Shown: piece after piece, positions 1 to 59,969 of the stretch
Position numbering within the stretch: the stretch's first letter is position 1
How the letters are laid out: each line of letters opens with the position of its first letter
IMG/VR virus record: IMGVR_UViG_3300037310_000161
Source of the DNA: a virus
Strand: one strand, 5' to 3'
DNA length: 59,969 nucleotides
The notes under the pieces: generated by a model
What the model saw: the letters and a program-made list of their open reading frames with translations, nothing else
Database searches by the model: none
Told to the model about the DNA's origin: nothing
Position numbers and translations under genes: made by a program

Positions 1-127
1 TTTCCGTAATCTTGTAGACGGCATTTTCCCGCATGAATTTCTTCGCCGCCTCAAGCCGCCCAGCGCGGTTCCGGGTCTCGCTCCACATGCCCTTGAGGGC
101 GTCTATCATCATATCCTCAAGGCCCGC
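1..127. repeat. Terminal overlap copy 1, identical to 59843-59969; the contig is a circle opened inside a gene
   Basis: Read directly: tttccgtaatcttgtagacggc...catatcctcaaggcccgc occurs at 1-127 and again at 59843-59969. An exact 127-nt overlap is what a k=127 de Bruijn assembler leaves on a circular path (inference). Confidence 0.95.
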
Positions 128-3100
128 GACGTTGTAGAAAGTCTTGAAGGCGTTCTTGAGATCGTTGATCGCACTCAGATTGCCATGCTCCGGGATATCG
201 AGCTTCCCGTCACGGGTCATGTAATCCAGGGCGTGAGCCCACTCATGCGCGAGCGACCCGTCACCATGGGGCTTGGTGAGCCCGATAACCCGGTTTGCCG
301 GGTAAAACATCGCCGCCGCCTTCTCACCTTTCCCGCGAGCGCCCCACCCGATACCGAGGCGCATGTCATCGTCTATGGACATCCCGAGATCCGGCGCGCC
401 CAGAGTCTCCGCCAGCATCTTAAAGGAGTCGTAGGTCAGATCGAGGCTTCGCTGTCGGAACCTGTTTTCGACCCACTCACCGAAGTCGCCGCCCCGGAAG
501 CCGAAAACGTCCTGCAGTTCCTGGCCGGTGATGTTGCGCCCGTTGCGGTACTTGTCGGGAGTCTCTATTTCGAAGATACTCACCCGCCGGTTGCGGCGTT
601 CTATGTCCTTGTTCCGGGTCTCCTCCGTCTCGTTAAGGGTGTGGGCGTCCCAATCCTTCAGAAGGTGCATGGAGAGGTCCGTCTTCTTTTTGGTCATCCT
701 GAAGACTGCCCGCCCAAAAGGCGTAAGGTACGTGGTATCTTCGTCGTAAAATCGGGAGATTCTTGAATAGAGGGTGCGCCCGTCCTCCACCCCAAGGTCG
801 GACTCCATTTCCAGGGTGTTGACCCACCGCTCGGCGGTGTCCTCCCCGACGAAGAGCTTGAGGATGTTCTGCCGGGCTTCCATCACGGTGAGCGCGGTGC
901 TGACGGCTTCATCCATCTGCTCCAGGACGGAGATGTATTGGGCTGCCTTGGCCTTGACGAGCTTCTGCTGATCGTCCCCCTTCTTGAGCGCATAGACGAG
1001 TTTATCGGCAAACCGATTGGCCCACCCCTTTTGAATGCTGCGGTCCCGCTCAATAGCGTCCGCATAGGTCGGGAGCTTTTCCCGGAACTCCTTCAGATAT
1101 CGCTCGACCCCGGGGGTCCGGCCTTCCACCGGGTGCACCGTGTTGAAATGCTCCGAACGTGCGGTCATGTTTATGAGGGACTTGGCGATCTGCTCCGGGG
1201 TTGCGTTCTGCGTGATATCGTCCAGATCGACATCGACCGCTTTCACCCGGTCTTCGAACTTCATCCCGGCTCGCTTGCCGCCGAGGGCTTCCCCGAAGTC
1301 TTCGACCTTCGGCCCGCGTTTCTCGCCCTTCTTCTCCTCTTTTTCCGCCTTCTTGGCTGCCTTCATCTCCTCCATGAACCGCCTCAGATATGGCTTGATC
1401 TTGGCGGAGAAGCTGTCGTAAGCCCATTTCACGAACTCCCGGACATCTTTCCCGGCGGCTTGGAACTCTGCCAGGGCCGTCTGAAAATGCGGCTTCGCTT
1501 TCGCGTAGGTGTCCTCATCGATGGCGCCCGGGCCAGATTTGAGCGCCTTGCCGCCGAACAGTTCAAAGAGCCCGGAGACCGCTTCATCCAGGCCTTTGGC
1601 TCCGTGCTCCGCCGCACTCTTCAAGATGTCGCTGGCGGCTCGGACGGGTTTCGGGGTCTTGGGCGTGCGGGGCGTCCGCGGCCCGCCGGCCGGCTTCGTG
1701 ATGGTGATCGATTCATCCGGGGGCGTTTCTGCGGGGGCTGTCTCGGCCGGGGCTGCCTCGCCCTCGTCCAGAATGGCGTCCAACTCGTCCATGGACATTT
1801 CTTGGATCTGATCGGCCGCGCCCTTCCCCCCGGTTTTCTCCGGAGTAACGGTCTCTTCCACCGGGGCAGTCTCCACCGGGGCGGCTTCTTCCACTGGGGC
1901 CGGTGGAAGCGGCCCAGCTTCGATCAATTCCTTAACCTTGTCGGGGACGTTCTCCATTATGAGGGGGTAGATGACCCCGACAACTTCTCCGTTCTGCTTG
2001 ACCGCCACTATGTTGAAAGAGTTTTTCCGTTTGGATTTTTCCCCCACTTGGTGATAAGTCGCGTCCGGGAACTTCTTTCGAAACACGTCAAAGAATCGGG
2101 CGTCTACATGCCCCCCGTTATCGAATGAAATCACCCGGCGGTCTGCGGCATTGTAGAACGCAACCGGGTGAATCTGCTTTTCCCCGGTCTTCGCCTGATC
2201 CACAAAATCTTTGACCTGTTCATCTTCAATCTGGTCGAGCCCTTTCGGTGGCTTCCCCTGGATCACAATTCGACCGTCGGAATAGTAGGACTTGCCGTCC
2301 ACGGTGTGCGTAACCCATGCCTCCTGCCCGCTCGACGTGGGTAGGGGTCTGGGGAGCTTCGGGTTCGCCGGGGGCTGATACTCGGAGATCGGCTTACCTT
2401 CCCGAAACGGGGCGTGCGGATCCTCTTTGCCAGTAAAGTAGGACTCCACAAAAGCCTTGGCTTCTTCTTTCGGGACATGGGTCAGCAGGGCTTCCGCGTC
2501 CGCGAAATACTGTCCAGGTCTGTACCCACGTTTCTCCACCGCCCAGAGCTTTTTATCCTTCATCTGAGTGATGCGGAGATAATCCTTCCGGTTGCCCGCT
2601 TCGTCCAGGGCGTGAACATCAAATTCCTTGTACCCGCTCTTCGTGGTCTCGGGGCCGTACTCGACCGAAGTGTAAAGGGTCTTAACCTCGTCCAGGCCTT
2701 CTTCGACGCTGGGAAGCCGCCCGTACTTTTCGGTAAGCTCGGCTTCGTATTTCTTGAGCTTATCCTTAAGGTCCAGATCCTTTTCGATATCATCCAGGGT
2801 CACGTGGTCGATATCGTGGCGGCTTCCCGACTCAAAGGTTTCTGCTGCCGCCGGGGTTTCGGCTACTGTCGGAACCGTTTCGGTCGCTGTCGGGGTCGGG
2901 GTCGGGGTCGTTTCGGCCACTGTCGGGGCTGCGCCCTGGAGCTTCTTCTGGTTTACCGCGTAAACCTTGCCGGTTTCGTCGTGGATGACTGCCTGCCCCT
3001 TGGCGAAGCTCCTGATTGTGCCGGTGCGGGTCACACCCTTGCTGTCCATCCAGGAGACTGCTCCGCCGACACTGAACCCCTTGGGGGCTCTCGCCCCACC

Positions 3101-5518
3101 AACCCCGCCCCCGCCGGTCGGGGTAATAATCAGCTCAGATGTCGGTGATTTATCACCCGTTTCTGGGGTCGGCCCAGCACCCGCGCCGGCTCCCATCGTT
3201 TCGGTCGTCGGTGATAAATCACCGGCCGCTTGCGTACTCGGGGTGCTCTTCGGTTTTTGAGAGTCTTTAAACTGCGACATCCACCGCTTTAACGTATCGA
3301 CGGCAGATTTTTTAGACATGGCAGACCCCCACCCCAGGTCATCATCCCCGGCCATTAGCCACTGGTCGCCGTATCGGACAAACTGCCCGGAATTGTTATT
3401 AAGCAGACCGCTTTTTAGCTCTTGGGGGGTACGAAGTATAATTCTTTCCGCTCCATCAATATCGTGCCTATATTCAAACCCTTCCGGGTGCGCACGGGCT
3501 ACTTCTTTAAACTTTTCAAGAATACTTTCATCGATATCGACCCACGCTGACCCAGTGGCTGGGATAGCATCAACCGCCCCAATGATTCTTTTTCTGTGCT
3601 CGTCTTCGCTGTCGAGGGTTACTTCTTTTGGCTTTTGAACCACCTCATCCGCCTGCAGGGGTTTCTGAATCAGGGTACTGATGGATGGTTTTCGATATCC
3701 GGTCGGCGTAACCGGGGTTTCCTGCAGGCTCTTCAGCCGGATTTCCTCTTCTGTAAGCTCCGGACCCGCCGTCTGTTCTTGCGCAAGTGGTTTCCGGGTT
3801 ACAGTTTCAAGGCTTGGCTCGCGGTACGAGGCCTTCTCGACCGGGGTTTCCTGAAGCTCTTTCAGCCGCGCCTCGTACTTGGCGAGGTTCCGCTTCTGGG
3901 TTTCAGAGCGGGTCCATTCCCGGATCTTAGTCAGGTTGGCTATCCGCCACTCAAGGTCTGCCTGCTCCTGCTGGCGGCTGGCAAGCTCATCCTTCTGCTG
4001 CTGCTGCACCAGGATCGCGGCTTCATCGACCCCCCGATCATACATCTCTGTTTCCTGGTCTGCGGGGACGGGCGCTTCCTCGGGAAGGGTTTGCGGAGTC
4101 TCACGATCCGTGCGGAGCTTATGCGCGTCAAACAGGTCTTCCGCTTCAAGAGTCCCGTGGATCTCTGCGATCCGGGCGTCCACGTCCGCAGGCGGTACGC
4201 CTTTCGTCTTGGTGTCTTCCAGGTACTGAAGCTCCGTTTCAAGATCCTGCCTGGAAACCGGCGTGCCCGTGACATCCACGCCCTGATCCCCGTAATACTT
4301 CGCCATCTGCGCCCGGTAGTCTTCAAGGTTCCGGGTCTGCTCGGGCGTCCGAACCTTCTCCGGGATCTTCTCAAGGTTGGCGATCTTCAGGTCCAGATCG
4401 GTCAGACTGTCATCGGCGGAGATCACCCGCCCGTTTTGAACGGCATCCGTGGCGTACCGCCGCCACATTTCCGCTGTGGTCGGGCTCTGCGGCTTGATCG
4501 ATTCATAGGCATAGTTGACCGCCGCCATGCGCTTTTCCGGCGCGGTAGCCGGGTCTTCCAGGGCTTTCGTCATCGAGCGGTTCTGGAGAGCTTTAACCCC
4601 CTGCCCGGCCCCGACGAGGATCATGGAAGCGGTGAGCGCCGGGCCGAAGGCGGCCTTGGCGGCATCCCACCAGCCCTGATCGCCTATCCCGAGGGCGCGC
4701 TCTTCTTCAGCCTGCCCCGCCGCCGTTCCCATTTCCGAGCCGACTTCCGCAACCGCAACCCCGCCTGCCTTCTTTGCAAACTCTTTGAAGGACGTGGTGA
4801 AAAGATCCTTTACGGCGGAGAATGCCGCTTTCTTTTCCGGACCGCCGAGAAGCCCCAGGATCTTGGCCCCCACCAAGTCGGAGAGGATTTCACCGCCGGT
4901 CTCGTAGAGGGCTTCCCGAACCGCCGTGGGTCGGGTCAACCGCTCGGCTTCTTCCTGCGTCTTGCCTTCGGCCATGAACTTTTTGACGCCACGCTCCATT
5001 ACGTCATCATACTGGGCGAGCCCGAACGTAGTACCCGCCGAGAGCGCGAAGCCGACCATTGCCGGAGCCCCTGCTACAGCTACTGCCGCGCCGGGAAGGC
5101 CCGCGCTGATAGACTGTACCGCCGATTCGACGCCGCCGGTCACACTGCCCCAGACCGGGCCTTCCTCCCGGCTGGACTGCTGCATGAGCGGGGTCGTTTC
5201 CTTCCACCCTTCCAGGCTCTTGAGCCCTCGAGTCGTGAGATCGTTCACCACTTCGACCCCGCCCTTGGGGTCGAGGGTGCGCGCCGCCTGGAGGACCATC
5301 TCCCCAGCACCTACAACGCCGCGAGAAACGGCGGACCCCAGGTCTCCCAGATACCCGCGCTCTTCCGCCCCGATCTTCGCTTCCTGCTTTGACAGGTCCT
5401 CGTGGATCGTTTCCAGGTCGGAAAGGAATCCGCCCGGCTGGGGGGTTTTCGACTGAGCGCTTTCTTCCTCAGCCAGTTTCCTGTTGTGGATAGCTTCGAG
5501 ATAGTCAAGGAAAGCCAT
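1..5518 (-). CDS. Giant polyvalent virion protein, N-terminal about 1,839 codons; the ORF continues through the circular junction into 59842..49581 (5,259 aa in total)
   Basis: ATG at 5518 lies 14 nt after the upstream stop (5532) and follows a GGGAG RBS. Hand translation starts MAFLDYLEAIHNRKLAEEES. Spot checks: 5341-5401 (EDLSKQEAKIGAEERGYLGD), 5015-5104 (GLPGAAVAVAGAPAMVGFALS) and 226-310 (MFYPANRVIGLTKPHGDGSLAHEWAHALDY). The track lists no complete minus-strand ORF in this frame over 5.5 kb, as expected if the frame is open to base 1. (5518-112)/3 = 1802, so it is in frame with the listed 49581..59954 ORF. Confidence 0.85.
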   Translation of the reverse strand, partial: MAFLDYLEAIHNRKLAEEESAQSKTPQPGGFLSDLETIHEDLSKQEAKIGAEERGYLGDLGSAVSRGVVGAGEMVLQAARTLDPKGGVEVVNDLTTRGLKSLEGWKETTPLMQQSSREEGPVWGSVTGGVESAVQSISAGLPGAAVAVAGAPAMVGFALSAGTTFGLAQYDDVMERGVKKFMAEGKTQEEAERLTRPTAVREALYETGGEILSDLVGAKILGLLGGPEKKAAFSAVKDLFTTSFKEFAKKAGGVAVAEVGSEMGTAAGQAEEERALGIGDQGWWDAAKAAFGPALTASMILVGAGQGVKALQNRSMTKALEDPATAPEKRMAAVNYAYESIKPQSPTTAEMWRRYATDAVQNGRVISADDSLTDLDLKIANLEKIPEKVRTPEQTRNLEDYRAQMAKYYGDQGVDVTGTPVSRQDLETELQYLEDTKTKGVPPADVDARIAEIHGTLEAEDLFDAHKLRTDRETPQTLPEEAPVPADQETEMYDRGVDEAAILVQQQQKDELASRQQEQADLEWRIANLTKIREWTRSETQKRNLAKYEARLKELQETPVEKASYREPSLETVTRKPLAQEQTAGPELTEEEIRLKSLQETPVTPTGYRKPSISTLIQKPLQADEVVQKPKEVTLDSEDEHRKRIIGAVDAIPATGSAWVDIDESILEKFKEVARAHPEGFEYRHDIDGAERIILRTPQELKSGLLNNNSGQFVRYGDQWLMAGDDDLGWGSAMSKKSAVDTLKRWMSQFKDSQKPKSTPSTQAAGDLSPTTETMGAGAGAGPTPETGDKSPTSELIITPTGGGGVGGARAPKGFSVGGAVSWMDSKGVTRTGTIRSFAKGQAVIHDETGKVYAVNQKKLQGAAPTVAETTPTPTPTATETVPTVAETPAAAETFESGSRHDIDHVTLDDIEKDLDLKDKLKKYEAELTEKYGRLPSVEEGLDEVKTLYTSVEYGPETTKSGYKEFDVHALDEAGNRKDYLRITQMKDKKLWAVEKRGYRPGQYFADAEALLTHVPKEEAKAFVESYFTGKEDPHAPFREGKPISEYQPPANPKLPRPLPTSSGQEAWVTHTVDGKSYYSDGRIVIQGKPPKGLDQIEDEQVKDFVDQAKTGEKQIHPVAFYNAADRRVISFDNGGHVDARFFDVFRKKFPDATYHQVGEKSKRKNSFNIVAVKQNGEVVGVIYPLIMENVPDKVKELIEAGPLPPAPVEEAAPVETAPVEETVTPEKTGGKGAADQIQEMSMDELDAILDEGEAAPAETAPAETPPDESITITKPAGGPRTPRTPKTPKPVRAASDILKSAAEHGAKGLDEAVSGLFELFGGKALKSGPGAIDEDTYAKAKPHFQTALAEFQAAGKDVREFVKWAYDSFSAKIKPYLRRFMEEMKAAKKAEKEEKKGEKRGPKVEDFGEALGGKRAGMKFEDRVKAVDVDLDDITQNATPEQIAKSLINMTARSEHFNTVHPVEGRTPGVERYLKEFREKLPTYADAIERDRSIQKGWANRFADKLVYALKKGDDQQKLVKAKAAQYISVLEQMDEAVSTALTVMEARQNILKLFVGEDTAERWVNTLEMESDLGVEDGRTLYSRISRFYDEDTTYLTPFGRAVFRMTKKKTDLSMHLLKDWDAHTLNETEETRNKDIERRNRRVSIFEIETPDKYRNGRNITGQELQDVFGFRGGDFGEWVENRFRQRSLDLTYDSFKMLAETLGAPDLGMSIDDDMRLGIGWGARGKGEKAAAMFYPANRVIGLTKPHGDGSLAHEWAHALDYMTRDGKLDIPEHGNLSAINDLKNAFKTFYNVAGLEDMMIDALKGMWSETRNRAGRLEAAKKFMRENAVYKITE
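233..247 (-). other. HEWAH (HExxH) zinc-metallopeptidase motif of the giant ORF; the domain spans the junction (about 1-600 plus 59721-59969)
   Basis: The reverse complement of 233-247 is catgagtgggctcac = HEWAH. Context is GIGWGARGKGEKAAAMFYPANRVIGLTKPHGDGSLAHEWAHALDY, followed by PDEMFARAFEAYV after the junction. This resembles the metallopeptidase of phage and plasmid polyvalent proteins (recollection, needs HMM). Confidence 0.7.
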
Positions 5519-33274: not shown

Positions 33275-33337
33275 CATAGACGACATAGACGACATAGACG
33301 ACATAGACGACATAGACGACATAGACGACATAGACGA
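33275..33337. repeat. Seven tandem copies of the 9-bp unit CATAGACGA, ending on the ATG of the SNF2 gene
   Basis: Read directly at 33275-33337. An in-frame TAG at 33331-33333 lies 3 nt before ATG 33337. Confidence 0.9.
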
Positions 33338-43230: not shown

Positions 43231-43591
43231 TCGGGTGGTTCTCCTCGACTACAAAGAACTCGCGGCAATGCTCAAGATCCGGCCGGGCACCCTCATGAAG
43301 TCGTGGCGGGAATGGCCCCATGTTTTTGTGGGGGCGGGACGGACTCTGAGGAGCGCCAGGTTTCCACTGGATGCGGTCGAGGGGGCTATCCGTGAGCGTC
43401 TACAAAGACAAACGGTATCCGGGGCAGTGGGCTGTGAGCTTCATGGTCCAGGGGGTGCGGTATCGAAAGCGCGGGTTCAGAACCCGCCGGGAGGCCCAGC
43501 TTTGGGAGGCCGCCGAGCGGGAAAGGGTGCTGTCCCCGCCGCGCCAGACCCCTACGGCATCCTTTGCCTCGTTGGCAAACCGCTATCTTGA
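43220..43591 (+). CDS. Excisionase/AlpA-like HTH ORF whose 3' end is anomalous
   Basis: LLDYKELAAMLKIRPGTLMKSWREWPHVFVGAGRTLRSARFPLDAVEGAIRE is a complete HTH_17-like domain. The start is TTG 43220 or GTG 43235. There is no stop until 43591, about 200 nt into the integrase gene in another frame. Confidence 0.4.
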   Translation: MGVDRVVLLDYKELAAMLKIRPGTLMKSWREWPHVFVGAGRTLRSARFPLDAVEGAIRERLQRQTVSGAVGCELHGPGGAVSKARVQNPPGGPALGGRRAGKGAVPAAPDPYGILCLVGKPLS

Positions 43592-45223: not shown

Positions 45224-45315
45224 GGATGAATGCGGGTCTGGGGCTCTCGCTCGCCTGCTAAGCGAGTGTAGTCCGTAGAGGGCTACCGAGGGTTCGAATC
45301 CCTCTCTCTCCGCCA
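45224..45315 (+). tRNA. tRNA-Ser(GCU)-like element with a defective acceptor stem, the probable attP core
   Basis: Anticodon arm CTCGC-CUGCUAA-GCGAG (45250-45266, anticodon GCU). Long variable arm GTAGTCC-gtaga-GGGCTAC. T arm GAGGG-TTCGAAT-CCCTC, then 3' TCTCTCC-G-CCA ending at 45315. The only 5' partner, GGATGAA (45224-45230), leaves 2 mismatches out of 7. Confidence 0.55.
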
Positions 45316-49580: not shown

Positions 49581-52500
49581 CTAATCCGCCGTCGCGGCGA
49601 GAAGCGCCCGCTCCCGCCTGCCGGGTTGCCGCATCCGGTTTATCTGACCCCGCAGTGCTTCCCTGCTGATGAGTGGAACGTAGGCCTGCCGCCCGGCCGA
49701 AAGCACCCGGTTGTTGTAAGCCGCCACCTGATCCATGATGATCTTGAGCTCCACCGGATCCTTGGCGCCGTCTGACACGTATGCCCGATACCGCTCGTAG
49801 ATCTTCCCCCTGGATTCGCCATAGCGGGACAGCTCCGCCTTAGCCTCGAACTGCCGCTCTTCGTGCATGGCCCGCTCGGATCCCCGGAACCCCGAAGCCC
49901 GCTGCATGGTCTCGGTCGTGCTCGGCCGGTACGGTTTCCCGTTCTTATCCCACACCTGCTTGCCGGAGCTGGTGGTGACCGAATCCAACTCCCGGAAGGC
50001 CCGAACGAGATTCGAGGCGAATGCCGGAAGCGCCTTTTCAGCCGCCTTGAGGGGCTGCCCGGTGGAGAGATACCCCCCGGCTTTCTGGATATCGGTCGCA
50101 ACCCCGCCGAAAGGCCCGGTAAGGTCGGTAAGAGTTTTAGGGACTTCGAGCCCGATGGCGAGAGACCCCGAGATATCGACCCCCAGAAGGCCCATGATCC
50201 CGTACCGGGCGCCTTTCTCCGCCGTGTCCCCGAGAGTCTTCCGGATGGTGTCGTAGACCATTTTCTCCGGGTCGCGGTCGTCGTCTGCGGCTCCGAGGAT
50301 CCCCCGAGCTATCGCCATGGCGGCGGCATAGCCCGCAAATCCCGAAGCCCCGCCGAGGACCGCCGGTGCCGCCAGGGCGAAAGCCAAGCCCTTGGCGTCT
50401 TGCCTGTTCAGCTTGTGCTCGAAGAGCATCTGCACGTAGTTGTGGGCAAACTTCTGAAACGTGTAGCCGGTCTGCGCGATCTTGGCGAACGGGTTGGTCC
50501 CCATGGCCCACGTCGGGAGCGTCCCCTTGCCGTACACCCCGTGCGCCCGCTCGGTTGCGAGCTGCGCGTTCTTTGCCGCCGTCGCGGCGTTCTGCCCCTG
50601 CGCCCGGGCCATCCGGTACGCGGCAAGAAGGGTCGTCCCACGGTTCCACTGCTCGGTTTTCCCGAACATCCACATGGCTTTGTCCATGACCTTAGACCAC
50701 ACGCCGCCGAACCCCTGATCCAACTCCCGCATGGCCTCCCGCACAAGCTGCGGGTTGTCCACCCCACGGGTGTGAACGTCGGCCATGAATGTCCGCTCCT
50801 CCTCGTTTGCAAACTCCTTTCCGCCCATGAAGGCCCCGTAATCTTTACCCGCCGTGAACAGCTCCTGCCCGATCTTGAGGAGGCTCCCCTTGCCGCCCAG
50901 TGCAAACTTGAGAATGGCGGGGGGTGCTGTCGTGGCCTGCGCCGTCACGTTGACGAGGGCCGACCTCGGGTTGAATCCCAGGTACTTGAAAGACACGATG
51001 GATTTCCCGAGCGCGATAGCCCGGTCCCACCTGTCGGCGTTCCGCATCTGCTCTGTGACGTATCCCTTGAGCCAGGAGTAGCGCTTAGGCTCTTTCACGG
51101 CATCAACGTCCATGAGCGCGGCCATCATCTTCTGCCCGGCTTCCGCCTTGGCGATACCGCCCGCGATCTGGGCGACGTAATTTCCAACCCTTTGGGCCGG
51201 GTCCGTGATGTAGCCCCGGACCACCTCGCCATCGCGCCCCGTTCGTGCGATCTTATGCGCCCGGAAGGCCCGGGCCTTCAGCATGTTGGATGCGGACACC
51301 AGGACTTCGCCCTGGAGGGCCGCGTTCAGCGCCGGGTGCTGGACCGCCTGATTGACCGCGTACTCGATGGCTTTTCCCATGTCCACGATGTTGAGGTTCA
51401 TCTGGATGTCTTCGGGGAGCTTCGAGACCAGGCCGTCCCGGAAGTTCGTGTAGCCTTCCCGCCCAAGCTGAAGCTTGAGCTTTTCGATCTGCCGCTGGCT
51501 TCCCTTGTGGAAGCGGTAGAAGTTGCCGTCCTTATCCTTGGCCGTCAGGAAATATTCTCCAGGCTCCCTGGACCGGGGGGCGTAAAAGCCCTTGAGTTCC
51601 CCCATCTCCTGGTAGAGAAGCAGGAGCTGGGAAAGGGTGTATTTCTGCTTGCGCCCGTCTCCCAGCGGGATCTCGATTGACGGCTCGCCCTGATCTGCTG
51701 GCGGTTTGTTCGGGTTCTTCTTCTCTTTTTCCAGGGTGTCGATGATGTCTTTGACCGGCTGTCTCAGGTACTCCAGCAACTCATCGAACGTCTTGCGAAC
51801 AGAGTCGACGGCCGCGAGCCCTTCGGCCGAAAGCCCGGACTTGGACCTCATCTCCGACCACTTGACCTCGTTCACGTCCATATCGTCCAGAATCTTTTCG
51901 ACCTTCGCATACTCCGCCGGGTCGGCTTTCCTGAGAGCGGACAGGCGGTCTACCGGGTCTTTATGCTTGAGGTAGATCTCGTTTTTGCGCTCTTCCCGGT
52001 GCTGGGTCGCATCATAGGCCTGCTTCACCGTCGGGTGGTCTATGTACTCCGGGGTTCGGAGCATACTCTCAAGGAACGTCATGTCCTTGGGGTGCAGGGC
52101 CTTCTTGAACGCCTGCACGGTCGAGGTGACTTCGTCTCTCATCTTGGACTTGAGCGAGGCATGGATGTCCGGGTTGCTGGGGTCGAACGTGCCGCGATTA
52201 AAAATGGATTTAATTTGAGTTGGAGAGAAAACAACATAAATATCATCAGTTATTGGATCATTCACATTTTTAAAAATTACTCCGTCGTTACCATCCGCTA
52301 TAGCTTCATCTAAAATCTCTGAAAAAGTTATATCGCCCCGCACTTCATGGTTAAAATCATGAATCTTAGGATTTTTTATAGATAAATATGCTGGAATTAT
52401 TCCTGGATTAAATTTTGCATATCGATCTCTCTGTAAATACATTTTTACAAAATAGTCAACCTTGTCTTTCTCTAGCTTAGCCTCATAAAATTCAACAGTA

Positions 52501-55500
52501 AGCCTTCGATCTTGTGCATATAATTTTTTTGCAACAGCAACATCATCTTTCGTTGTGTTATCGAGCACGTCATTGGCATCTAGCACTCTGTCTTCATACT
52601 GTTTTTTTGATAATTTCCCGGCATCGTACTCTCTTTTGGCAATATCAAGCTCCCTCAAGGAAGCTTTTGCTTTCTTGACCGGCTTTGGCAAAGACTTCAT
52701 TTGCTGCCTTGCTCGCCCTTCTCGTTTTTGAGTGATTTTATTGAATTGATCGTAGACCTCTTTTTGTCGAGAAAGAAAGGCTTCGCTTGTAATGTCGGGG
52801 GTCGTGTACATCTCGGCGTTGTCAGCAGATTTTGCGAAGAAAAACCCTCTTAGGGCGCTTGCAGCTCCCGTATTTTCTCCTAACCGACCAATGTCAAACG
52901 CTTTAAATTCAGGGTTGTCGGAGCCATGATACACTACCAGAGGTTCTCCATTTTCATCCACCACCTTGCTGTTACCGAACCACTTCTTGAAGGCGTCCGT
53001 GCTTGCAATCTTCTTCGCCGCACCCAGCACACCCTCAAGATTCTCGGCAGACTTCGGGCCTGCCTTCTCCAGGGCTTTCCTCGACGCCACCAGCATGGCT
53101 TTAATGTCGTTTTCGCTGAGCTGGATGTTGAACCCGAGCCGCCGCAGCCCCTCCCGAATGGCCGCGTACAGCCTCTTCAGAAATGCTGGGTTCTCCCCGG
53201 CTTCGGCCATCTCCGCGATCTTCTCGTCGGCCGCGATCAGCCGGTCGGCCTCTTCGGTGAGGTCCAGACCGTAAAGGTCCGCGATATCCTTCAGGCCCTT
53301 CTGCCCGTAGAGCGCCACCGCCTCTTTGAGGAACGGCTTGAACCTGTCCCCCAGAACCCCGCGCATCCCGTGGTGGCCCACCACTTCGTGGAGCACCACC
53401 TGCTGGGCGCGGTCTGCCGACTCCAGGTAGTCCGCAATCAGGTAAACGGCCCCGGTCGCTGGGTCGTAGAGACCCTCCAACCCGTCCGCGTCGGTCGCTC
53501 GGGAAAGGAGCTTCTGCACCTTTTCCTTAACGTCGTCCGGCAAGCCGTAGAGCGACTGCACGATCTGAATCTTCGGCCCGGCCTTCCACCTGTCGATAAC
53601 CGGGGAGAGCGCTGCCTGGATGTCGGACGCCTTGCTGCTGGACTGTGCTTGCCCCCGGGAGAACCGGAGATAGTCCTGAAGGTAGTTATCTTCCTGCTCC
53701 ATTTCGGCGTCTTGCTGCCCTTCCACCGCCCGCCGTCGCGCTTCCGCTTCCTCCGCCTGCTGCCGGGCAAGAAGCTCCTGTGTGATGGCTTCAAGCCTCT
53801 GTGTTTTCCGGGCCAGCTCTTCTTCCTGCGGAAACGGGGTCGCTATCAGTTTCTCCAGCTTGGGGGTTTCGTTCTTGATGTCCTGAATGCTCTTCAGCTT
53901 CTCTTGAATTGTTCGGGCGAGCGACCGCTCGATGTCGGTCAGACCGCTCTTAACGCCGTCCGCCATGGGTGCCTGATAGTGAACGTCTTTCCCTATCTTG
54001 TAGACAAGTGCCGTATCCCCTACCGTGAGGGAGAGATGGCCAGCCAGCGGGAGGAAAACCCTCGATTTCTTGGGCTTCCCCTTGGCGTCCGGGGTCTCGA
54101 CGGTGACAATGCGCCCGAATCTCCCGAGGTACACGCTGTCCGGGCTGTCTGCCGTCTTCTTGGCTGTCCACGCTGCATGAAGTTTGCGGGCGAGGGCGTT
54201 GACCTTGCCGCCCTCGGTTTCCAGGTTGAAATGGCGGTTGGGCTCGACAAGCCGCCCGAGGTTGTCATGCTGCGGCTTGAACTCTATCGCCATGATAGAT
54301 TCGGCTATTTGTTTGTGGATATGCGAGCGTTCAATGGTTTTCTCCGCTGCTGTCATCATCAGCGGGAGCTTCGCGAGCTTCTCCTTGGCCCGGCGGCGAC
54401 CGGACTCGTAGTCCGCCTTGACGTTCGAAAGCCGCCGCACTTCTTCATCCAGCTCGATCTTTTCCTTGTGGATCGGATCGTCTGCGAGCAACCCCTCCAT
54501 TTCCGAAGCGTCCATGGAGGTCTTCGAAATATCGATGATGTTCCGAATTTTCGGGTTGTTGCTCATGATCTGCTGCAGGACTTTTTCCTTGTAAGCCACG
54601 GTTGACCACATGAACGCATCGACCGTTTTCACCGTCCCGTAGTTGAAGATCCCGACGTTTTTGATCCGGTTCCCGTAGCGCCACCCACGCCCGTTGCGTT
54701 GCTCGTAGTTGGCATAAGTCCAGTCCACGTCCAGGTGGTGGATGTAGGACACCCGGTCTTGGACGTTCACCCCGATCCCCATCTTTGGGGTCGAGCCAAT
54801 GAGCACGCGGATTTGGCCTTTCCGCGCCTTGAGTAGCAGTGCGGCGAGATCGTCGTCGCTCTTCGCGTCGTGGATGAAAGCAATCTGCTCTTTCGGAATA
54901 CCCTTCTTGATGAGCTTCTGCTTGATGTCAGCGTAGATGTTGAACTTGTCTTTTTTGCCCGGTACTCCGCGATCCGCGAAGATGAGCTGCAGGTGGTTCT
55001 TTTCCTGGTACGCCTGCTTGTAATTCTTGGAGCTTTGATCCAGCTCTTCCGCGTCCACCGCTTTCTGATAAAGATCCCAAACCTTATCGACCGCGACGTT
55101 GACCTTCGTGTTCTCATAGTCGGGGAGAGTCGGGTCGTAGAGCCGGGGATCCATGGCGACCGTTCGCCCGTCGGAAACCACGCGGAGGATATTGTCGTTG
55201 ACCCCCCGGAAAGTAGCCTTGTCCCCGAGGGCGCGGATGCTCCGAATCCTCCGCTTGAGAAGATCCTGAAAGGCTTCCGTGAACTTGTTCCACTCCACCA
55301 TAACGGGCTCGGGCTTGCCCCCGATCACGTCCGGCCGGACAATCCCGAGGTCTTTCGCCTGCCGGACGTCCATTACCTGCCGCGCCAGCGCGAGAAGCTC
55401 CGGCACGTTCACGAACTCCGCAAACCGGCTGGTCATTTTGAAATGCCCGCCCTCCGGTGCGTACTCCGCCTCTTTGCGCATAACCCCGAACGTGTTCGCC

Positions 55501-58500
55501 CACGCATCGAACGTGTCGATCCCCAGCCGCGTAAGCTCGTTCGGCTGCAGATACCGCTGAATGTTGAAAAGCTCGCCCACGGAGTTTGTGAGCGGGGTGC
55601 CGGAAGCCAGGATGATTCCCCGACCGTTCCGCATGTGCAGGTACTGGGTCTTGAGGAAGAGGTCCAGAGCGATATTGGACTTCCCGGACTCCACACCCTT
55701 CATGTTCGCGAACTGGGTGGCAAACCCGATGTTCTTGTGGGTGTGAGCTTCGTCCGCCACAATCAGGTCGAGCCCCATTTCTTCGAACGTGGGGACTCCT
55801 TCCTCGCCTTCCGAGAGCTTGTCCAGTTTGTCTCTGAGGGCCTTGATCTGCTGCCCGATTTGCCGCACGGTGAACTGGGAGGCGCTAGCGCTGTCAGCGT
55901 GGCTCTGCACCCGCTCCATCCGCTGGATTTCCTGATGGAGGAACTCCCTTTGCGTATCGGGCGAGAGCTTGATTCGCTCAAAGGAGTTGTGGTTCATGAT
56001 GACGCAGTCATAATTTCCCGTGGCGATCTGGGCGAGCTGCCGCTGTCTCTTCTGCGGGTTGGTCTTGGAAACCGCTATCGTCAGGATGTTCGCCCCTGGA
56101 TAGAGCCGGAGGAAATCCGCCGCGATCTGCTCGACCGTGGCTTTCTTCACGATAAGGACCGGCTTCTTGGCGAGCCCGAGCCGCCGGGCCTCCATGATTG
56201 ACCCGATCATCGTGTAGGTCTTCCCGGTGCCAACCTCGTGCGCGAAGTATGTCGCCCCGGTCTGAAGGAACCGCCAAATGGCGTTCTTCTGGTGCGGTCT
56301 GAGCTTGATAATCTCGTCAGGCACTTTGCCGGGGAAAGTGAGGTGCTCCCCGTTATACTGCCGGTCCACAAACGAGTTGAGCCGCTCGTTGTAGGTTTTC
56401 TCGAGCTGGGCGGCCGCATCGTCGTTTTCGTAGACCCACTCGCTGAGCCTCGCCTGGAGTTTGGCGAGCTTCGCGTTAGCGGCGTCTGTCAGGGCGATGT
56501 TGGTGACCATCCGGGTCTTCCTGTTCCCGTTCTCGTCCAGGTACTCGATTTTATCCTCGATGACCGGAAAGCCGCCATTCAGCGCATAGTCGATAAGCCC
56601 ACGGTCGCTACCCTTTTTGAAGAGGTTGATCCGGTATTGTTTGAGCCCGGTCGCTTCCAGAACCTTGACGAAAAGAGGCACACTCAGGGAGTCGGTGTCA
56701 GGGTCGAAGTTTTGATTGTATTCCCTGATTGCCTCTTCAGAGCTGCCGAAGGTTTCTATCAGTTCATCACGTTCCTGGAGCGTCAGGTTTTCTCGAAGAG
56801 AGGTATACCCGATTGGGTTCTTCTTGTAGCTGACAACCCCGAACTCTTCTGCGGCAACCAGGGAAACCATCGCGTTGTCCTTCCGGCGTTTGGCTTCCGC
56901 TTCGGTACTCGCCCGGAAATGGGGGTTCCACATTCCCGTTTCAAGTACATGATCGACGTAAAAACCACGGATTCCACGGCCACCGAACAGACCGTCCTTC
57001 ACGAAGCTCTGAACCACCTGCGCCGGAACCCAGGACATCCCAAGACGTGCGCGGATGTCCGACATGGGGAGATCGACGGGCATTACAATCTTGAGCGCCT
57101 CGACGTTTTCCTTGTACTTCTCGTCCAGGGCGGCCGCCGCCTCGGCCACCGCCAGCTTGCGCCGCACGTTTCCGCTCAGATACGCGTCTGCCGCGACGTA
57201 CCCGGTCTCGGGGTCGTCGAATATCTGCCCCTTCAGTTCGGCAATAAGGGTGTCCCGGGTTTTGCCGGTGAGCTGCCCCATGTAGGCGAGGTCCACCCGG
57301 CCGCGCCACTGAAGCGAATAGAGAAGACTTTCATGTGAGGTATCCGCCGAAGTCGGCGGCTCTACCGGGGCGAGAGTGTTCTTGAAGAAAATGTCCGCGA
57401 GCCCGGTAACGGTCTTCGTCCCACGGTCCCACTTCTCCAGGCTGAGGAGAAGCCCGCCGTCCGGGTCATCAACGATGAGCCGGGCATTTTCCGGTTTGTT
57501 AATCGGCCCATACGTCTTGACCAACTGATCGTAGGCGGTGCGGAGCTGTTTTCTGAGAACGGTCAGGTCGGCGGCGGATTGCTTTTTTACCTGCGCGCGG
57601 AGAAGGTTTCGGATGATCCCCCGAATACCAATTACCCCCTTCATGAACTCCTGTTCTTTCGGAGTCAGATTGTCCCGCAGGGAAGGCCGCCCGTCCCGGT
57701 TCTGGTAAATCTTCCCGTTGTCCCCCACGTAGTAGTTGTAATTTTTGACGTGAGCGGCCTCCGGGATCATGTTCGTGAAGTCAAGCTCGATAGGAGCCCG
57801 GTCCTGCCCGTAAATCGAGACAGGCAAGCGGTCTATGGCGCTTCGCAAATCGTCGCGGTACGTGCTCTTCATAGCAACGTAGGGGCGGTATGCCCCGTAG
57901 CGCCCGGAGTTGACCGCGAGATCCCCGAGAACGTTCTCCGGGACCGCCTGGAAGAAGTTGTTCACCTGTGTTCTGCGGGGAGTCGAACCCGCTATGAAGT
58001 TGCCGTTGGAATCCACCTCGGGAAGGATGACCGCTTTGGACTCCACCCAATCGGGGACCGTTGGAAGCGCCGGTAGCCCTTCGCCTTTCTTCCGGAAGAT
58101 GAGAATGTCCGCTCCGGCGAAAGCCCCAGGGAAGACACCGTTTGGGAGCCGGATAGCGGAAACGAGGTCTGCGCTCTCCGCGAACTTTCGGCGGGCCTTG
58201 GCGTCTTCCTTATCCATGGTCCCCGTGGACGTGAGAACCACGGTCAGGCCGCCGGGCTTTGTAATGTTGATCATCTTGCTGATGAAGTAATCGTGGATCT
58301 GAAACTCTTCCAGGTTGTGCGTCCGGTCCACGGGCTCGGTCTGCCCGAACGGCACGTTGGAGATGGTGAGGTCATAGAAGTTGTTCGGGACGGCGGTCTT
58401 TTCGAACGGCTGATTCAGGATGTTCGCGTTCTGGTAGAGCTGGGCCGCGATTCTCGCGGAAATCGGGTCGATATCCACCCCTGTGAGGAGGGAATTTCGC

Positions 58501-59969
58501 CGCGTTTCCCGCGCCATGGTCCCGAAGAAATGCCCGATACCGCAGGAGGGCTCAAGAACTTTGCCGCCCATAAAGCCGAGGCGGCCGAGAGCTTCGTGGA
58601 CAAGTGCGGCAACGCTTGGTGGCGTGTAGTAGGCATCCACCGCGTTTTCGTAAAGCTGCCACCGCTCTTGATCGGTCAGGAGAGACTTGACGATTTCCGC
58701 ACGCCCGGCCCAAGCAGGGTTGGGGTAGGAACCGAGAGCTTCAGAAAGCTCCCCCCACCCGTTGTATTTGACCAGGATCTCTTGTTCCGCCGCCGTGGCC
58801 GTCCGGTTCTCGGCTTCGATCTGTTTGAGGGTTCGGATCGCCGCGATATTGTTGTTGAATCGGTCGGTGAGGTTGGTGTTCTCAAGATCCGTCGTGTTCC
58901 GGATGATGTAGTCTAGCCGCTCGGATACGTGAACGGCGTCTGCGTTGGATGAAGTGTCGGTTCCTCCTCCTCCGACGGCAAGTAGATCATCATCGGTAAG
59001 ACTATCTCCTTCGCTTCCTCCAGGCTGTACCCCTTCTGCATCAAGTCCACTACCAGATCCAGCGCCTTCTCCTGGGCCTCCAGGGCCGACTTCTCCAGCA
59101 CCCCCGCCGCTTCCAGGCGTGCTACCATGTTCGGACGGTGCTTCCGCCAGTGCTTCAGAGCCTCGGTCCCCCATGTCCGTAATTGTGCCATCCGGAACCT
59201 CCAATTTGATGATAGTGTCGCCGCCTGGATGATCGACCGCCTTCAAGAAGAAGGAAAGAGCATCATCCGCCTTGAGCGGCTGGTCGTACGCCACAGCCCC
59301 CTTGCCCGCGTACTCCACTCCCCCCTCGCCTTTTTCAAGCTGGTAGGAGTCATCGTAAGCGAGATACCCCTTCGGCTGGGCCGCCACCCCCCGCGCAGAC
59401 TGCTCGTATGCGTACCAGTAAAGCCCCCCGGCGCTTGCCTTCCCCCCGTAAAGGGCTTCATAGACCGCGTCGATCCGCTTCAGGAGCTTCTGGACTGCTT
59501 CTTTGGCTTCTTTCCGCTCGAGAGTCGTGATCGGGTTGTACCCCTCCTTCGCGTGGGGCTCGCCCTTTTCGGACCACTCAAGCTGGTCGAACATATTGTC
59601 AAAAAGCCGGTTGAACCTCTCCCGCTCTTCAGCCGTTGGATAAGCCCCGTTGTCGCGGTTGAAGAGCGTCTCCACACCCCCGGGAGCCACGAAATCCGTA
59701 TCGACCAGATACCTGTTACCTTCCTGGAGCTTGTCCGAAACGTAGGCTTCGAATGCCCGGGCAAACATCTCATCGGGCTTAGACCAATACTTGCCGACTT
59801 CGCCGCCGTCCAACGCCATAGCATTTTTGAAGAACTTCGTGTTTTCCGTAATCTTGTAGACGGCATTTTCCCGCATGAATTTCTTCGCCGCCTCAAGCCG
59901 CCCAGCGCGGTTCCGGGTCTCGCTCCACATGCCCTTGAGGGCGTCTATCATCATATCCTCAAGGCCCGC
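49581..59969 (-). CDS. Giant polyvalent virion protein, C-terminal 3,457+ codons (methyltransferase, SNF2 helicase, second zincin motif, ART-like domain, hydrophobic C-terminus)
   Basis: Track ORF 49581..59954. Its listed Met is internal because the frame stays open to 59969 and continues at base 128. Motifs are itemised in the separate domain features. Confidence 0.9.
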   Translation of the reverse strand, partial: AGLEDMMIDALKGMWSETRNRAGRLEAAKKFMRENAVYKITENTKFFKNAMALDGGEVGKYWSKPDEMFARAFEAYVSDKLQEGNRYLVDTDFVAPGGVETLFNRDNGAYPTAEERERFNRLFDNMFDQLEWSEKGEPHAKEGYNPITTLERKEAKEAVQKLLKRIDAVYEALYGGKASAGGLYWYAYEQSARGVAAQPKGYLAYDDSYQLEKGEGGVEYAGKGAVAYDQPLKADDALSFFLKAVDHPGGDTIIKLEVPDGTITDMGDRGSEALAEAPSEHGSTPGSGGGAGEVGPGGPGEGAGSGSGLDAEGVQPGGSEGDSLTDDDLLAVGGGGTDTSSNADAVHVSERLDYIIRNTTDLENTNLTDRFNNNIAAIRTLKQIEAENRTATAAEQEILVKYNGWGELSEALGSYPNPAWAGRAEIVKSLLTDQERWQLYENAVDAYYTPPSVAALVHEALGRLGFMGGKVLEPSCGIGHFFGTMARETRRNSLLTGVDIDPISARIAAQLYQNANILNQPFEKTAVPNNFYDLTISNVPFGQTEPVDRTHNLEEFQIHDYFISKMINITKPGGLTVVLTSTGTMDKEDAKARRKFAESADLVSAIRLPNGVFPGAFAGADILIFRKKGEGLPALPTVPDWVESKAVILPEVDSNGNFIAGSTPRRTQVNNFFQAVPENVLGDLAVNSGRYGAYRPYVAMKSTYRDDLRSAIDRLPVSIYGQDRAPIELDFTNMIPEAAHVKNYNYYVGDNGKIYQNRDGRPSLRDNLTPKEQEFMKGVIGIRGIIRNLLRAQVKKQSAADLTVLRKQLRTAYDQLVKTYGPINKPENARLIVDDPDGGLLLSLEKWDRGTKTVTGLADIFFKNTLAPVEPPTSADTSHESLLYSLQWRGRVDLAYMGQLTGKTRDTLIAELKGQIFDDPETGYVAADAYLSGNVRRKLAVAEAAAALDEKYKENVEALKIVMPVDLPMSDIRARLGMSWVPAQVVQSFVKDGLFGGRGIRGFYVDHVLETGMWNPHFRASTEAEAKRRKDNAMVSLVAAEEFGVVSYKKNPIGYTSLRENLTLQERDELIETFGSSEEAIREYNQNFDPDTDSLSVPLFVKVLEATGLKQYRINLFKKGSDRGLIDYALNGGFPVIEDKIEYLDENGNRKTRMVTNIALTDAANAKLAKLQARLSEWVYENDDAAAQLEKTYNERLNSFVDRQYNGEHLTFPGKVPDEIIKLRPHQKNAIWRFLQTGATYFAHEVGTGKTYTMIGSIMEARRLGLAKKPVLIVKKATVEQIAADFLRLYPGANILTIAVSKTNPQKRQRQLAQIATGNYDCVIMNHNSFERIKLSPDTQREFLHQEIQRMERVQSHADSASASQFTVRQIGQQIKALRDKLDKLSEGEEGVPTFEEMGLDLIVADEAHTHKNIGFATQFANMKGVESGKSNIALDLFLKTQYLHMRNGRGIILASGTPLTNSVGELFNIQRYLQPNELTRLGIDTFDAWANTFGVMRKEAEYAPEGGHFKMTSRFAEFVNVPELLALARQVMDVRQAKDLGIVRPDVIGGKPEPVMVEWNKFTEAFQDLLKRRIRSIRALGDKATFRGVNDNILRVVSDGRTVAMDPRLYDPTLPDYENTKVNVAVDKVWDLYQKAVDAEELDQSSKNYKQAYQEKNHLQLIFADRGVPGKKDKFNIYADIKQKLIKKGIPKEQIAFIHDAKSDDDLAALLLKARKGQIRVLIGSTPKMGIGVNVQDRVSYIHHLDVDWTYANYEQRNGRGWRYGNRIKNVGIFNYGTVKTVDAFMWSTVAYKEKVLQQIMSNNPKIRNIIDISKTSMDASEMEGLLADDPIHKEKIELDEEVRRLSNVKADYESGRRRAKEKLAKLPLMMTAAEKTIERSHIHKQIAESIMAIEFKPQHDNLGRLVEPNRHFNLETEGGKVNALARKLHAAWTAKKTADSPDSVYLGRFGRIVTVETPDAKGKPKKSRVFLPLAGHLSLTVGDTALVYKIGKDVHYQAPMADGVKSGLTDIERSLARTIQEKLKSIQDIKNETPKLEKLIATPFPQEEELARKTQRLEAITQELLARQQAEEAEARRRAVEGQQDAEMEQEDNYLQDYLRFSRGQAQSSSKASDIQAALSPVIDRWKAGPKIQIVQSLYGLPDDVKEKVQKLLSRATDADGLEGLYDPATGAVYLIADYLESADRAQQVVLHEVVGHHGMRGVLGDRFKPFLKEAVALYGQKGLKDIADLYGLDLTEEADRLIAADEKIAEMAEAGENPAFLKRLYAAIREGLRRLGFNIQLSENDIKAMLVASRKALEKAGPKSAENLEGVLGAAKKIASTDAFKKWFGNSKVVDENGEPLVVYHGSDNPEFKAFDIGRLGENTGAASALRGFFFAKSADNAEMYTTPDITSEAFLSRQKEVYDQFNKITQKREGRARQQMKSLPKPVKKAKASLRELDIAKREYDAGKLSKKQYEDRVLDANDVLDNTTKDDVAVAKKLYAQDRRLTVEFYEAKLEKDKVDYFVKMYLQRDRYAKFNPGIIPAYLSIKNPKIHDFNHEVRGDITFSEILDEAIADGNDGVIFKNVNDPITDDIYVVFSPTQIKSIFNRGTFDPSNPDIHASLKSKMRDEVTSTVQAFKKALHPKDMTFLESMLRTPEYIDHPTVKQAYDATQHREERKNEIYLKHKDPVDRLSALRKADPAEYAKVEKILDDMDVNEVKWSEMRSKSGLSAEGLAAVDSVRKTFDELLEYLRQPVKDIIDTLEKEKKNPNKPPADQGEPSIEIPLGDGRKQKYTLSQLLLLYQEMGELKGFYAPRSREPGEYFLTAKDKDGNFYRFHKGSQRQIEKLKLQLGREGYTNFRDGLVSKLPEDIQMNLNIVDMGKAIEYAVNQAVQHPALNAALQGEVLVSASNMLKARAFRAHKIARTGRDGEVVRGYITDPAQRVGNYVAQIAGGIAKAEAGQKMMAALMDVDAVKEPKRYSWLKGYVTEQMRNADRWDRAIALGKSIVSFKYLGFNPRSALVNVTAQATTAPPAILKFALGGKGSLLKIGQELFTAGKDYGAFMGGKEFANEEERTFMADVHTRGVDNPQLVREAMRELDQGFGGVWSKVMDKAMWMFGKTEQWNRGTTLLAAYRMARAQGQNAATAAKNAQLATERAHGVYGKGTLPTWAMGTNPFAKIAQTGYTFQKFAHNYVQMLFEHKLNRQDAKGLAFALAAPAVLGGASGFAGYAAAMAIARGILGAADDDRDPEKMVYDTIRKTLGDTAEKGARYGIMGLLGVDISGSLAIGLEVPKTLTDLTGPFGGVATDIQKAGGYLSTGQPLKAAEKALPAFASNLVRAFRELDSVTTSSGKQVWDKNGKPYRPSTTETMQRASGFRGSERAMHEERQFEAKAELSRYGESRGKIYERYRAYVSDGAKDPVELKIIMDQVAAYNNRVLSAGRQAYVPLISREALRGQINRMRQPGRRERALLAATAD
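52155..52997 (-). other. ART-like (polyvalent-protein ADP-ribosyltransferase-like) domain with a coiled-coil insert, inside the giant ORF
   Basis: FKKWFGNSKVVDENGEPLVVYHGSDNPEFKAFD (YHG at 52923-52931, verified) ... FFFAKSADNAEMY ... DGVIFKNVNDPITDDIYVVFSPTQIKSIFNRGTFDPSNPDI. The family assignment is from memory of the ART-PolyVal pattern and needs an HMM search. Confidence 0.5.
53370..53390 (-). other. Second zincin-like motif, HEVVGHH, inside the giant ORF
   Basis: The reverse complement of 53370-53399 reads VVLHEVVGHH. Context is GAVYLIADYLESADRAQQVVLHEVVGHHGMRGVLG. Confidence 0.5.
54645..56303 (-). other. SNF2/DEAH-box helicase module inside the giant ORF
   Basis: LRPHQKNAIWRFL, AHEVGTGKTY (about 56217-56231), LIVADEAH (DEAH at 55743-55754, verified), SGTPLTNSVGELFNIQRYL, and the C-terminal lobe IGSTPKMGIGVNVQ...EQRNGRGWRYGN. 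Confidence 0.85.
58080..58637 (-). other. N6-adenine DNA methyltransferase-like domain inside the giant ORF
   Basis: Motif I VLEPSCGIGHFFG at 58521-58559 and motif IV ISNVPFG at 58344-58364, both verified against the DNA. Confidence 0.8.
59843..59969. repeat. Terminal overlap copy 2, identical to 1-127
   Basis: Same comparison as for 1-127. The unique genome length is therefore 59,842 bp. Confidence 0.95.

Follow-up and report, generated by a model that had tools for sequence, protein, structure and literature searches.

Giant proteins of the Bcep22 type were, according to later papers, reportedly first described by Gill et al. in 2011. The giant DarB-like proteins already described from Bcep22-like and related podophages (PMC6630229, PMC9144972) include Bcep22 gp75, BcepIL02 gp70 (4,667 aa), JC1 gp69 (4,515 aa), Atu_ph08 gp21 (4,877 aa), and those of Parlo, PEp14, and Ralstonia phages. 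P1 DarB itself (2,255 aa) is packaged in the capsid and shields DNA entering the cell from some of the type I systems (P1 record annotation and cited papers). The wider class is that of the polyvalent proteins, for which the relevant passages of Iyer, Burroughs, Anand, de Souza, and Aravind (2017, PMC5512222) name metallopeptidase (MPTase), SNF2, and N6-adenine methyltransferase (N6A-MTase) domains as hubs, together with ART-PolyVal (an ADP-ribosyltransferase, ART), LPD domains, and a phage structural context. Here we analysed a 59,969-nt stretch of viral DNA (IMG/VR virus record IMGVR_UViG_3300037310_000161), referred to as the window, in which one gene encodes a protein of 5,259 aa. We consider it likely that this giant protein is a phage-type polyvalent protein of the DarB-like/PLxRFG kind, a single 583-kDa beads-on-a-string chain that would be made late, packaged in a few copies in the capsid, and expelled through the tail with or before the DNA.

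The giant protein has the features of the polyvalent class: multiple unrelated enzymes including hub domains are combined with LPD1 in one ORF (open reading frame), and the gene has a structural-gene context. The original prediction had read it as a polyvalent protein, which the profile matches to LPD1, N6_Mtase, helicase, ART-PolyVal, and PLxRFG bear out, and had left open whether such an architecture had been described. As a class it has: MTase-helicase antirestriction, zincin and ART cargo, and virion association of homologues are already in the literature, and no new class is added. What is new is the particular architecture and size, a head-gene lineage like that of Methanosarcina virus MetMV, the probable host, and the bracketing of variable cargo by an N-terminal module (N-module) and a C-terminal PLxRFG domain (the tail). 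To the known giant DarB-like polyvalent proteins the window contributes a complete and very large member (26% of the genome). Its lineage has no cultured relative, and the host is probably a syntrophic deltaproteobacterium.

The gene is complete when the ends of the window are joined. The first and last 127 nt form an exact direct repeat; the contig is circular, was opened within the giant gene, and retains the overlap from assembly. The genome unit without one repeat copy is 59,842 bp. A minus-strand ORF of 3,457 aa (49581..59954) in the ORF list has no end before the window edge. After the join, the frame runs on the minus strand from 5518 to 1 and then from 59842 to 49581 as one ORF, giving a 15.8-kb gene that takes up 26.4% of the genome and encodes a protein of 582.8 kDa. 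The first plausible start is the ATG at 5518, which has GGGAGA upstream and is 14 nt downstream of the stop of the preceding gene. Residue ranges from the C-terminal translation (3,462 aa) were converted to whole-protein numbering by adding 1,797. An ORF of 5,259 aa across the contig ends had been predicted, and the same length was recovered after removing the repeat; all motifs named in the prediction were located at their predicted positions.

The long ORF could instead be an artefact of assembly or circularisation fusing two unrelated genes at the contig ends. It is visible only once the window ends are joined, and the gene as publicly annotated (P0001, 'N12 class adenine-specific DNA methylase') has 3,457 aa, 1,802 residues fewer, being cut short by the contig end. 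Such a fusion is hardly credible, as the 127-nt overlap is exact, the reading frame is kept across the join, and a single zincin domain crosses it in an unbroken alignment to 27 stand-alone homologues. The join is genuine because stand-alone homologues and other giants align co-linearly across it. Specifically, the stand-alone homologue P0121 is 52% identical over 89% of the query, and BLAST aligns the giants P0002 (5,493 aa), P0007 (5,120 aa), P0009, and P0011 co-linearly with the giant protein from N-module to tail. The independent homologue P0226 begins at the same N-terminus, which likewise supports the join.

The core of the chain is composed of a methyltransferase and a helicase (Table 1). 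Pfam N6_Mtase matches the giant protein with an E of 1.7e-6, the Eco57I and Methyltransf families match as well, and the MTase is the only match of the C-terminal part in a PDB sequence search (M.TaqI and a type I M subunit). Motif I, VLEPSCGIGHFFG, occupies aa 2268-2280 (window 58521-58559), and motif IV is located in ISNVPFG at aa 2333-2339 (NVPF; window 58344-58364). The helicase motifs span aa 3020-3572, with Pfam matches to ResIII (3.5e-8), Helicase_C (1.6e-9), and SNF2-rel_dom (1e-5, barely over the cut-off). The AdoMet motif I, motif IV, Walker A, and DExH are all intact in the giant protein. Among 122 homologues, xEPxxGxG, NVPF, GxGKT, and DEAH are invariant or nearly so, GxGKT and DEAH being invariant. 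The predicted N6A-MTase and SNF2/DEAH helicase are thereby backed, and so is the stretch of about 600 aa without known sequence that had been noticed between them; the region is present (~560 aa) and conserved. It has no match in the local Pfam copy. PF28553 (WH_1) and PF28554 (DUF8437) are precomputed for the giant protein without coordinates, and judging by their order along the homologue P0002 they probably lie in this inter-domain region.

PHROG 10089 ('DarB-like antirestriction') matches with E=0 and 1,336 bits, and P1 DarB aligns to aa 2228-3661 in three co-linear BLASTP blocks of 31%, 26%, and 28% identity, both in agreement with the P1 DarB-like layout that had been proposed. P1 DarB corresponds to the core only. 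P1 is a myophage with DdrB (ParB and MPTase), DarA, Hdf, and Ulx as separate genes, whereas the zincins, ART, and terminal modules of the giant protein are joined in one chain. DarA, Hdf, and DdrA, which assist the packaging of P1 DarB, have no homologues reported in Lessieviruses (PMC9144972). A defence-system reading was also considered and rejected: the scores of NCBIfam DISARM DrmD and anti-phage PLD are far under their cut-offs and reflect a generic helicase C-domain signal.

The best matches in cultured phages are 'DarB-like antirestriction' giants of podophages of ~58-63 kb, namely vB_PalP_Y7, BcepIL02, CSP3, Itty13, Pavtok, PEp14, Atu_ph08, and Ralstonia phages, with 30-36% identity in the MTase-helicase core only. 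The Bcep22-like giants share with the giant protein this core and PHROG 10089. They are likewise encoded by one multi-thousand-residue ORF that ends the structural module of a ~60-kb phage in which a Ser tRNA and a recombinase are also encoded. Proteins of comparable size (4,500-4,900 aa) stand at this position in vB_PalP_Y7 and Lastavirus as well. In BcepIL02 gp70, an SLT transglycosylase comes first, followed by MTase and helicase, and LPD3 and LPD38 come last; it differs in having neither of the zincin calls, no ART-PolyVal, no PLxRFG tail, and no N-module. The giant gene takes up a larger share of the genome than that of JC1 (26% versus 22%). The closest architecture in a cultured phage is that of vB_PalP_Y7 (WPJ30526.1, 4,675 aa), which has MTase, helicase, ART-PolyVal, and the same tail (profile E 6e-56) at ~30% identity, and a DdrB-like ParB domain in place of the N-module. 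Neither LPD1/zincin nor HEXXXH zincin is detected in it by Pfam.

Three further systems were compared by description, name, or mechanism. A prophage protein of Acetonema longum (WP_004096050.1), likened by its description only, carries GGDEF, SNF2, MTase, MPTase, and ART according to the passage of PMC5512222 that treats it. The passages of that paper on polyvalent proteins do not mention the N-module and the ~700-aa tail as delivery modules, and the ART domain here has a Phe for the Tyr given there. Lastavirus (Klebsiella), a temperate podophage of ~62 kb, has one giant gene (19% of the genome) for a 495-kDa 'PLxRFG' protein, the likeness being one of domain name. The N4 virion RNA polymerase (vRNAP) gp50 (~3,500 aa) is likewise very large and multi-domain; a podophage packages it in its particles and ejects it via the tail as beads on a string, and the parallel is one of mechanism only. 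No T7-like RNA polymerase family matches the giant protein in Pfam, PHROG, or NCBIfam scans, and no sequence similarity to N4 gp50 was found. According to a passage of Iyer et al., the N4 vRNAP contains an MPTase (PMC5512222).

Two zincin domains flank the core. The first one spans the junction, as predicted from its HEWAH motif (aa 1758-1762, window 233-247). Across 28 sequences, i.e., the giant protein and 27 LPD1-containing proteins, His1758, Glu1759, His1762, and Glu1864 are invariant and Asp1765 is nearly so (at least 90%). An Asp three residues past HExxH is described in PMC5512222, in the passage on MPTases, as a trait of a phage-type clade. NCBIfam CLCA_X matches on both sides of the junction (aa 1654-1767, E 9e-19; aa 1838-1927, E 2e-10), and Pfam LPD1 matches with an E of 1e-18. 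Glu1864 sits inside LPD1, and therefore LPD1 here looks like the Glu-helix C-terminal half of a gluzincin, not a separate domain. In the AlphaFold model of the first zincin and LPD1 (pLDDT 68.5, pTM 0.73), three strands lead to the HExxH helix and then to a later Glu helix. The second zincin contains HEVVGHH at aa 3991-3997 (window 53370-53390). Its HE..GH and a downstream acidic helix are kept in all six homologous segments, so the motif noticed originally stands as a zincin, but its pattern is HEXXXH, not HExxH. An HEXXXH set of polyvalent MPTases is described in a passage of PMC5512222. The match of this domain to Pfam DUF6647 is sub-threshold (21.2 bits, cut-off 24.1).

The ART-like domain predicted at 52997-52155 is matched by Pfam ART-PolyVal (PF18760; Tox-ART-HYD2 clade) with an E of 3e-16 and 60.9 bits against a gathering threshold of 31.2. 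The match falls in two stretches because the domain is split by a charged insert of ~115 aa (aa ~4195-4310). The passage of PMC5512222 on ART-PolyVal places a His on strand 1, a Tyr on strand 2, and an Asp on strand 5 of the active site. The corresponding residues here are His4145, the Phe in GFFFAK (which begins at aa 4172), and Asp4359, i.e., H-F-D versus the H-Y-D of the family. The His and Asp are conserved, and Phe occupies the Tyr position also in 2 of 12 aligned homologues.

We then inspected the two ends of the chain. The N-module is matched by no Pfam, PHROG, or NCBIfam model, and a PDB sequence search with the N-terminal 1,839 aa finds nothing. When the N-terminal 420 aa serve as query in an exhaustive HMMER search, 349 representative protein clusters are retrieved (E<=1e-3). 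Of the 150 clusters listed, nearly all have the N-module within the first ~170 residues, in proteins of 172-5,669 aa. Forty-eight of the listed proteins reach 2,500 aa or more; 15 of these have the tail, 13 have ART, and nine have MTase and helicase. This unannotated domain is worth defining. The linker region behind it (aa 396-1210) is poorly conserved among relatives; charged stretches and Pro/Thr/Gly/Ala-rich linkers are found in the N-terminal ~1,200 aa, in line with the charged and Pro/Thr linker modules noted originally. A small insert between the two Pro/Thr/Gly-rich linkers (2669-3418, minus strand; aa ~700-950), which contains GGAVSWMDSKGVTRTGTIRSFAKGQAVIHDETGKVYAVNQKKL, matched no family and is probably beta-rich. 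Pfam searches on ten sub-segments at E<=1 returned nothing credible for the N-module, linkers, pre-core, first zincin, post-helicase region, or tail, and a tandem-repeat scan of the 5' part of the gene found nothing relevant.

The tail is recognised by NCBIfam NF032893 (PLxRFG/tail-700) with 162.2 bits against a cut-off of 100, positions 1-645 of the 681-position model covering aa 4591-5219. It is predicted to be mainly alpha-helical and is C-terminal in all relatives compared. Its predicted fold matches, with E values down to 8e-22, the final fragments of many viral polyvalent, MTase, or helicase proteins, and also podophage proteins of ~1,400-1,500 aa (Celeribacter P12053L, Vibrio ICP2) whose listed names include no enzyme domain. 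Of the membrane-active, transmembrane (TM)-like tail in the original prediction, the Gly/Ala-rich runs exist, but they are weakly hydrophobic, and the tail is a known all-alpha PLxRFG domain. Weak matches to helical-bundle transporters (probability <0.1) were not accepted as evidence for a membrane protein.

A BLAST block map of the chain has conserved blocks at aa 35-370, 1210-3890, and 4590-5255, separated by variable linkers (370-1210) and a cargo slot (3890-4580). The metagenomic giant P0002, whose core is 55-60% identical and which occupies the same genomic position ahead of an integrase, has InPase and MuF_C in this slot versus the HEXXXH zincin and ART here. Elsewhere the cargo is FtsK_gamma (P0011) or ART (P0010), and GGDEF appears in the source name of P0007. 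The tail is more similar than the core in P0008 (36-41% versus 30%) and P0010 (37% versus 26-31%). From these comparisons we infer a recurrent chassis, made up of N-module and tail, around a middle of exchangeable cargo. The separation of constant end modules from swappable enzymes provides a testable model of packaging and expulsion. A broader proposal is tentative and rather doubtful: the two modules would be a generic delivery chassis, common to bacterial phages and MetMV, a virus reported from the archaeon Methanosarcina. With it, short-tailed viruses could package and expel beads-on-a-string effector trains of any length (here 583 kDa) in place of separate ejection proteins.

Evidence on delivery comes from relatives. 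In virion mass spectrometry, JC1 gp69 ranks second by score and first by unique peptides (51; PMC9144972), and N4 ejects a 383-kDa beads-on-a-string polymerase through a channel of ~35 Å (PMC13434306). Because of the N4 vRNAP precedent, a giant beads-on-a-string protein should be able to pass a tail channel. The giant protein would be synthesised late in infection and encapsidated in few copies via the N-module and the PLxRFG tail. It would then be ejected module by module, the linkers allowing either unfolding or passage as beads on a string, and the Gly/Ala-rich hydrophobic runs of the end modules might contact the envelope. Inside the cell, the MTase and SNF2-like translocase core would act in cis on the entering DNA and blunt type I restriction. 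The zincins might cut the chain into working pieces, thereby releasing or activating them, or cut host proteins, and the ART would modify a host target using NAD+. Comparable roles are proposed by Iyer et al. in a passage where MPTases process polyvalent proteins and ARTs modify host proteins (PMC5512222). As read from the alignments, the motifs of the MTase, the helicase, both zincins, and the ART (with Tyr replaced by Phe) are intact and conserved.

Several points weigh against the reading as a delivered polyvalent protein. Virion packaging and injection are presumed from homologues, JC1 gp69 being found in virions, and the delivery role of the N-module and tail is likewise presumed. BcepIL02 gp70 has neither of these modules, so not every DarB-like giant is built on this chassis. 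No PDB entry significantly matches the AlphaFold model of the tail (pLDDT 67), and the hydrophobic runs are marginal, with KD19 at most 1.74 (1.6-1.7 at aa 136-168 and 4991-5018). For the first zincin, Pfam is silent even at E<=1, and the call is based on family conservation and NCBIfam. The top matches of the first-zincin model in the PDB (Foldseek) are zincins, albeit non-significant (collagenase H 4arf, E 0.09; lethal factor 4dv8, E 1.5), and the giant-protein subgroup is uniformly without the strand-2 His-x-Glu kept in stand-alone zincin relatives. Activity of the ART, with Phe for the triad Tyr and a large insert, is uncertain.

The same end modules allow the giant protein to be viewed as above all structural, serving in ejection or in an internal core as do T7 gp16 and the N4 ejectosome; its ends would build a trans-envelope conduit, and the enzymes would be dispensable. 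This view overlaps with that of a delivered polyvalent protein, differing in which role is essential, and we regard it as possible but rather unlikely. It accords with the recurrence of N-module and tail with different or no recognised cargo, with a tail at least as conserved as the enzymes in the distant relatives P0008 and P0010, and with the uncharged Gly/Ala-rich runs in both end modules; elsewhere in the structural block a TM-like segment occurs only in orf709. The Bcep22-like and Atu_ph08 giants moreover have an N-terminal wall hydrolase, as in T7 gp16. However, Pfam scans find no peptidoglycan hydrolase domain in the giant protein, the tail model does not resemble any solved ejection protein in the PDB, and the catalytic motifs of the cargo are strongly conserved, unlike those of mere passengers. 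It is quite improbable that the giant protein is an unpackaged cytoplasmic enzyme for DNA modification, replication, or host takeover, encoded near the structural genes by chance. The JGI name is merely 'N12 class adenine-specific DNA methylase', and non-phage elements abound in similar MTase-helicase cores (2,000-2,700 aa); the phage also has its own separate replication module. Yet the gene shares strand and transcription with the head and tail genes, its PLxRFG tail is as in the Lastavirus giant and the vB_PalP_Y7 C-terminus, homologues are detected in purified virions, and ART-PolyVal, LPD1, and MPTase are hallmarks of delivered polyvalent proteins. A delivered, DarB-like polyvalent protein is the likely reading.

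Table 1. Positions of the giant gene, the domains of its product, and other genes in the window
Feature	Position (nt)	Strand	Residues and remarks
Giant gene, 5' part	1..5518	-	aa 1-1840
Giant gene, 3' part	49581..59969	-	aa 1798-5259 and stop at 49581-49583; 59843-59969 repeats 1-127
Terminal direct repeat copy	59843..59969		127 nt, identical to 1-127
N-terminal module	4334..5401	-	aa ~40-395; Gly/Ala-rich uncharged run aa 136-168
Variable linker region	1889..4333	-	aa 396-1210; charged segments, two Pro/Thr/Gly/Ala-rich low-complexity linkers, small globular inserts
Conserved pre-core region	599..1888	-	aa 1211-1640; 55% identical in P0002
First zincin, N-terminal half (putative)	1..559	-	aa 1654-1840; three-stranded sheet and helix HEWAHALD
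Pfam LPD1	59577..59810	-	aa 1851-1928; invariant Glu helix PDEMFARAFEAY (EMFARAF), E1864
N6-adenine DNA methyltransferase, gamma class, M.TaqI-like	57987..58679	-	aa 2228-2458
Conserved inter-domain region between MTase and helicase	56316..57986	-	aa 2459-3015, ~560 aa
SF2/SNF2-related helicase	54378..56315	-	aa 3016-3661; GTGKT 3044, DEAH 3203, Helicase_C
Second zincin, HEXXXH type (putative)	53067..53621	-	aa 3914-4098; HEVVGH aa 3991-3996; downstream acidic helix with Glu
ART-PolyVal ADP-ribosyltransferase domain	52137..53003	-	aa 4120-4408; motif span aa 4122-4402
PLxRFG / 'tail-700' domain	49704..51590	-	aa 4591-5219; Gly/Ala-rich runs aa 4991-5018, 5055-5073
TerS	25370-25936	-	
Portal	19650-21605	-	
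Major capsid protein (MCP)	16836-17825	-	
Primase gene	29884-31956	-	
Tyrosine integrase	43371-44444	+	
'tRNA-Ser(gct)' tRNA-like hybrid	45224-45315		adjoins integrase

The giant gene sits in the late/structural block, on the same strand as the head and tail genes. The minus-strand order is TerS, TerL, a 483-aa ORF, portal, MCP, head-closure Hc3, and a virion structural protein, followed by ORFs of 626 (Laminin_G_3), 709, 924, and 475 aa, the giant gene, and ORFs of 136, 798, and 286 aa. The gene had been placed inside a structural operon, and it is indeed located between head/tail-accessory genes and fibre-like genes. A relative (locus L003) has its giant gene in the same placement among structural genes. 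A promoter and terminator scan near the 3' end of the giant gene was uninformative. The plus strand carries a replication module with a family-A DNA polymerase, a PD-(D/E)XK/DUF2800 nuclease, and an Enc34-type SSB.

Among cultured viruses, MetMV (MK170447.1) is closest in its head genes, with 43% identity in the portal, 38% in the MCP, and two further head-module ORFs in common; its GC content is 42% versus 59% here. An MCP search finds MetMV and a few others and no Lessievirus, i.e., no Lessievirus-like head genes. The MetMV structural module ends with a 3,002-aa protein that carries the N-module (hmmsearch E 4e-32). This likeness points to a bacterial-archaeal virus link in syntrophic habitats.

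The tyrosine integrase adjoins a tRNA-like hybrid. The hybrid has a degenerate 5' half, and its 3' ~68 nt, with ~10 nt past the CCA, are identical to genuine tRNA-Ser genes of Syntrophobacteraceae metagenome-assembled genomes. Only four GTDB genomes, all of Syntrophobacteraceae, contain an exact match to a 41-nt pattern from the hybrid, and in one of them (L008) a homologous integrase (50-76% aa identity) immediately precedes the same hybrid tRNA. The hybrid is likely the phage attachment site (attP). Because the integrase lies beside a hybrid tRNA-Ser matching Syntrophobacteraceae genes, the phage is read as temperate and probably integrates into tRNA-Ser of a Syntrophobacteraceae host, consistent with the temperate lifestyle predicted for it. 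A scan of GTDB genomes with the giant protein found no close prophage relative.

Aside from these genes, the replication module contains a second SNF2-like helicase (33337-35388, plus strand; 683 aa; phrog_62 E 3e-115). Downstream of the giant gene, the 798-aa ORF (46662-49058, minus strand) forms a low-GC island (48% versus ~60%) and has no match in Pfam, PHROGs, NCBIfam, or the PDB. The 286-aa ORF that follows (45802-46662, minus strand) is repetitive, of a 'LTLTL'-type beta-like character, and fibre-like. Both ORFs may be exchangeable receptor-binding or fibre genes.

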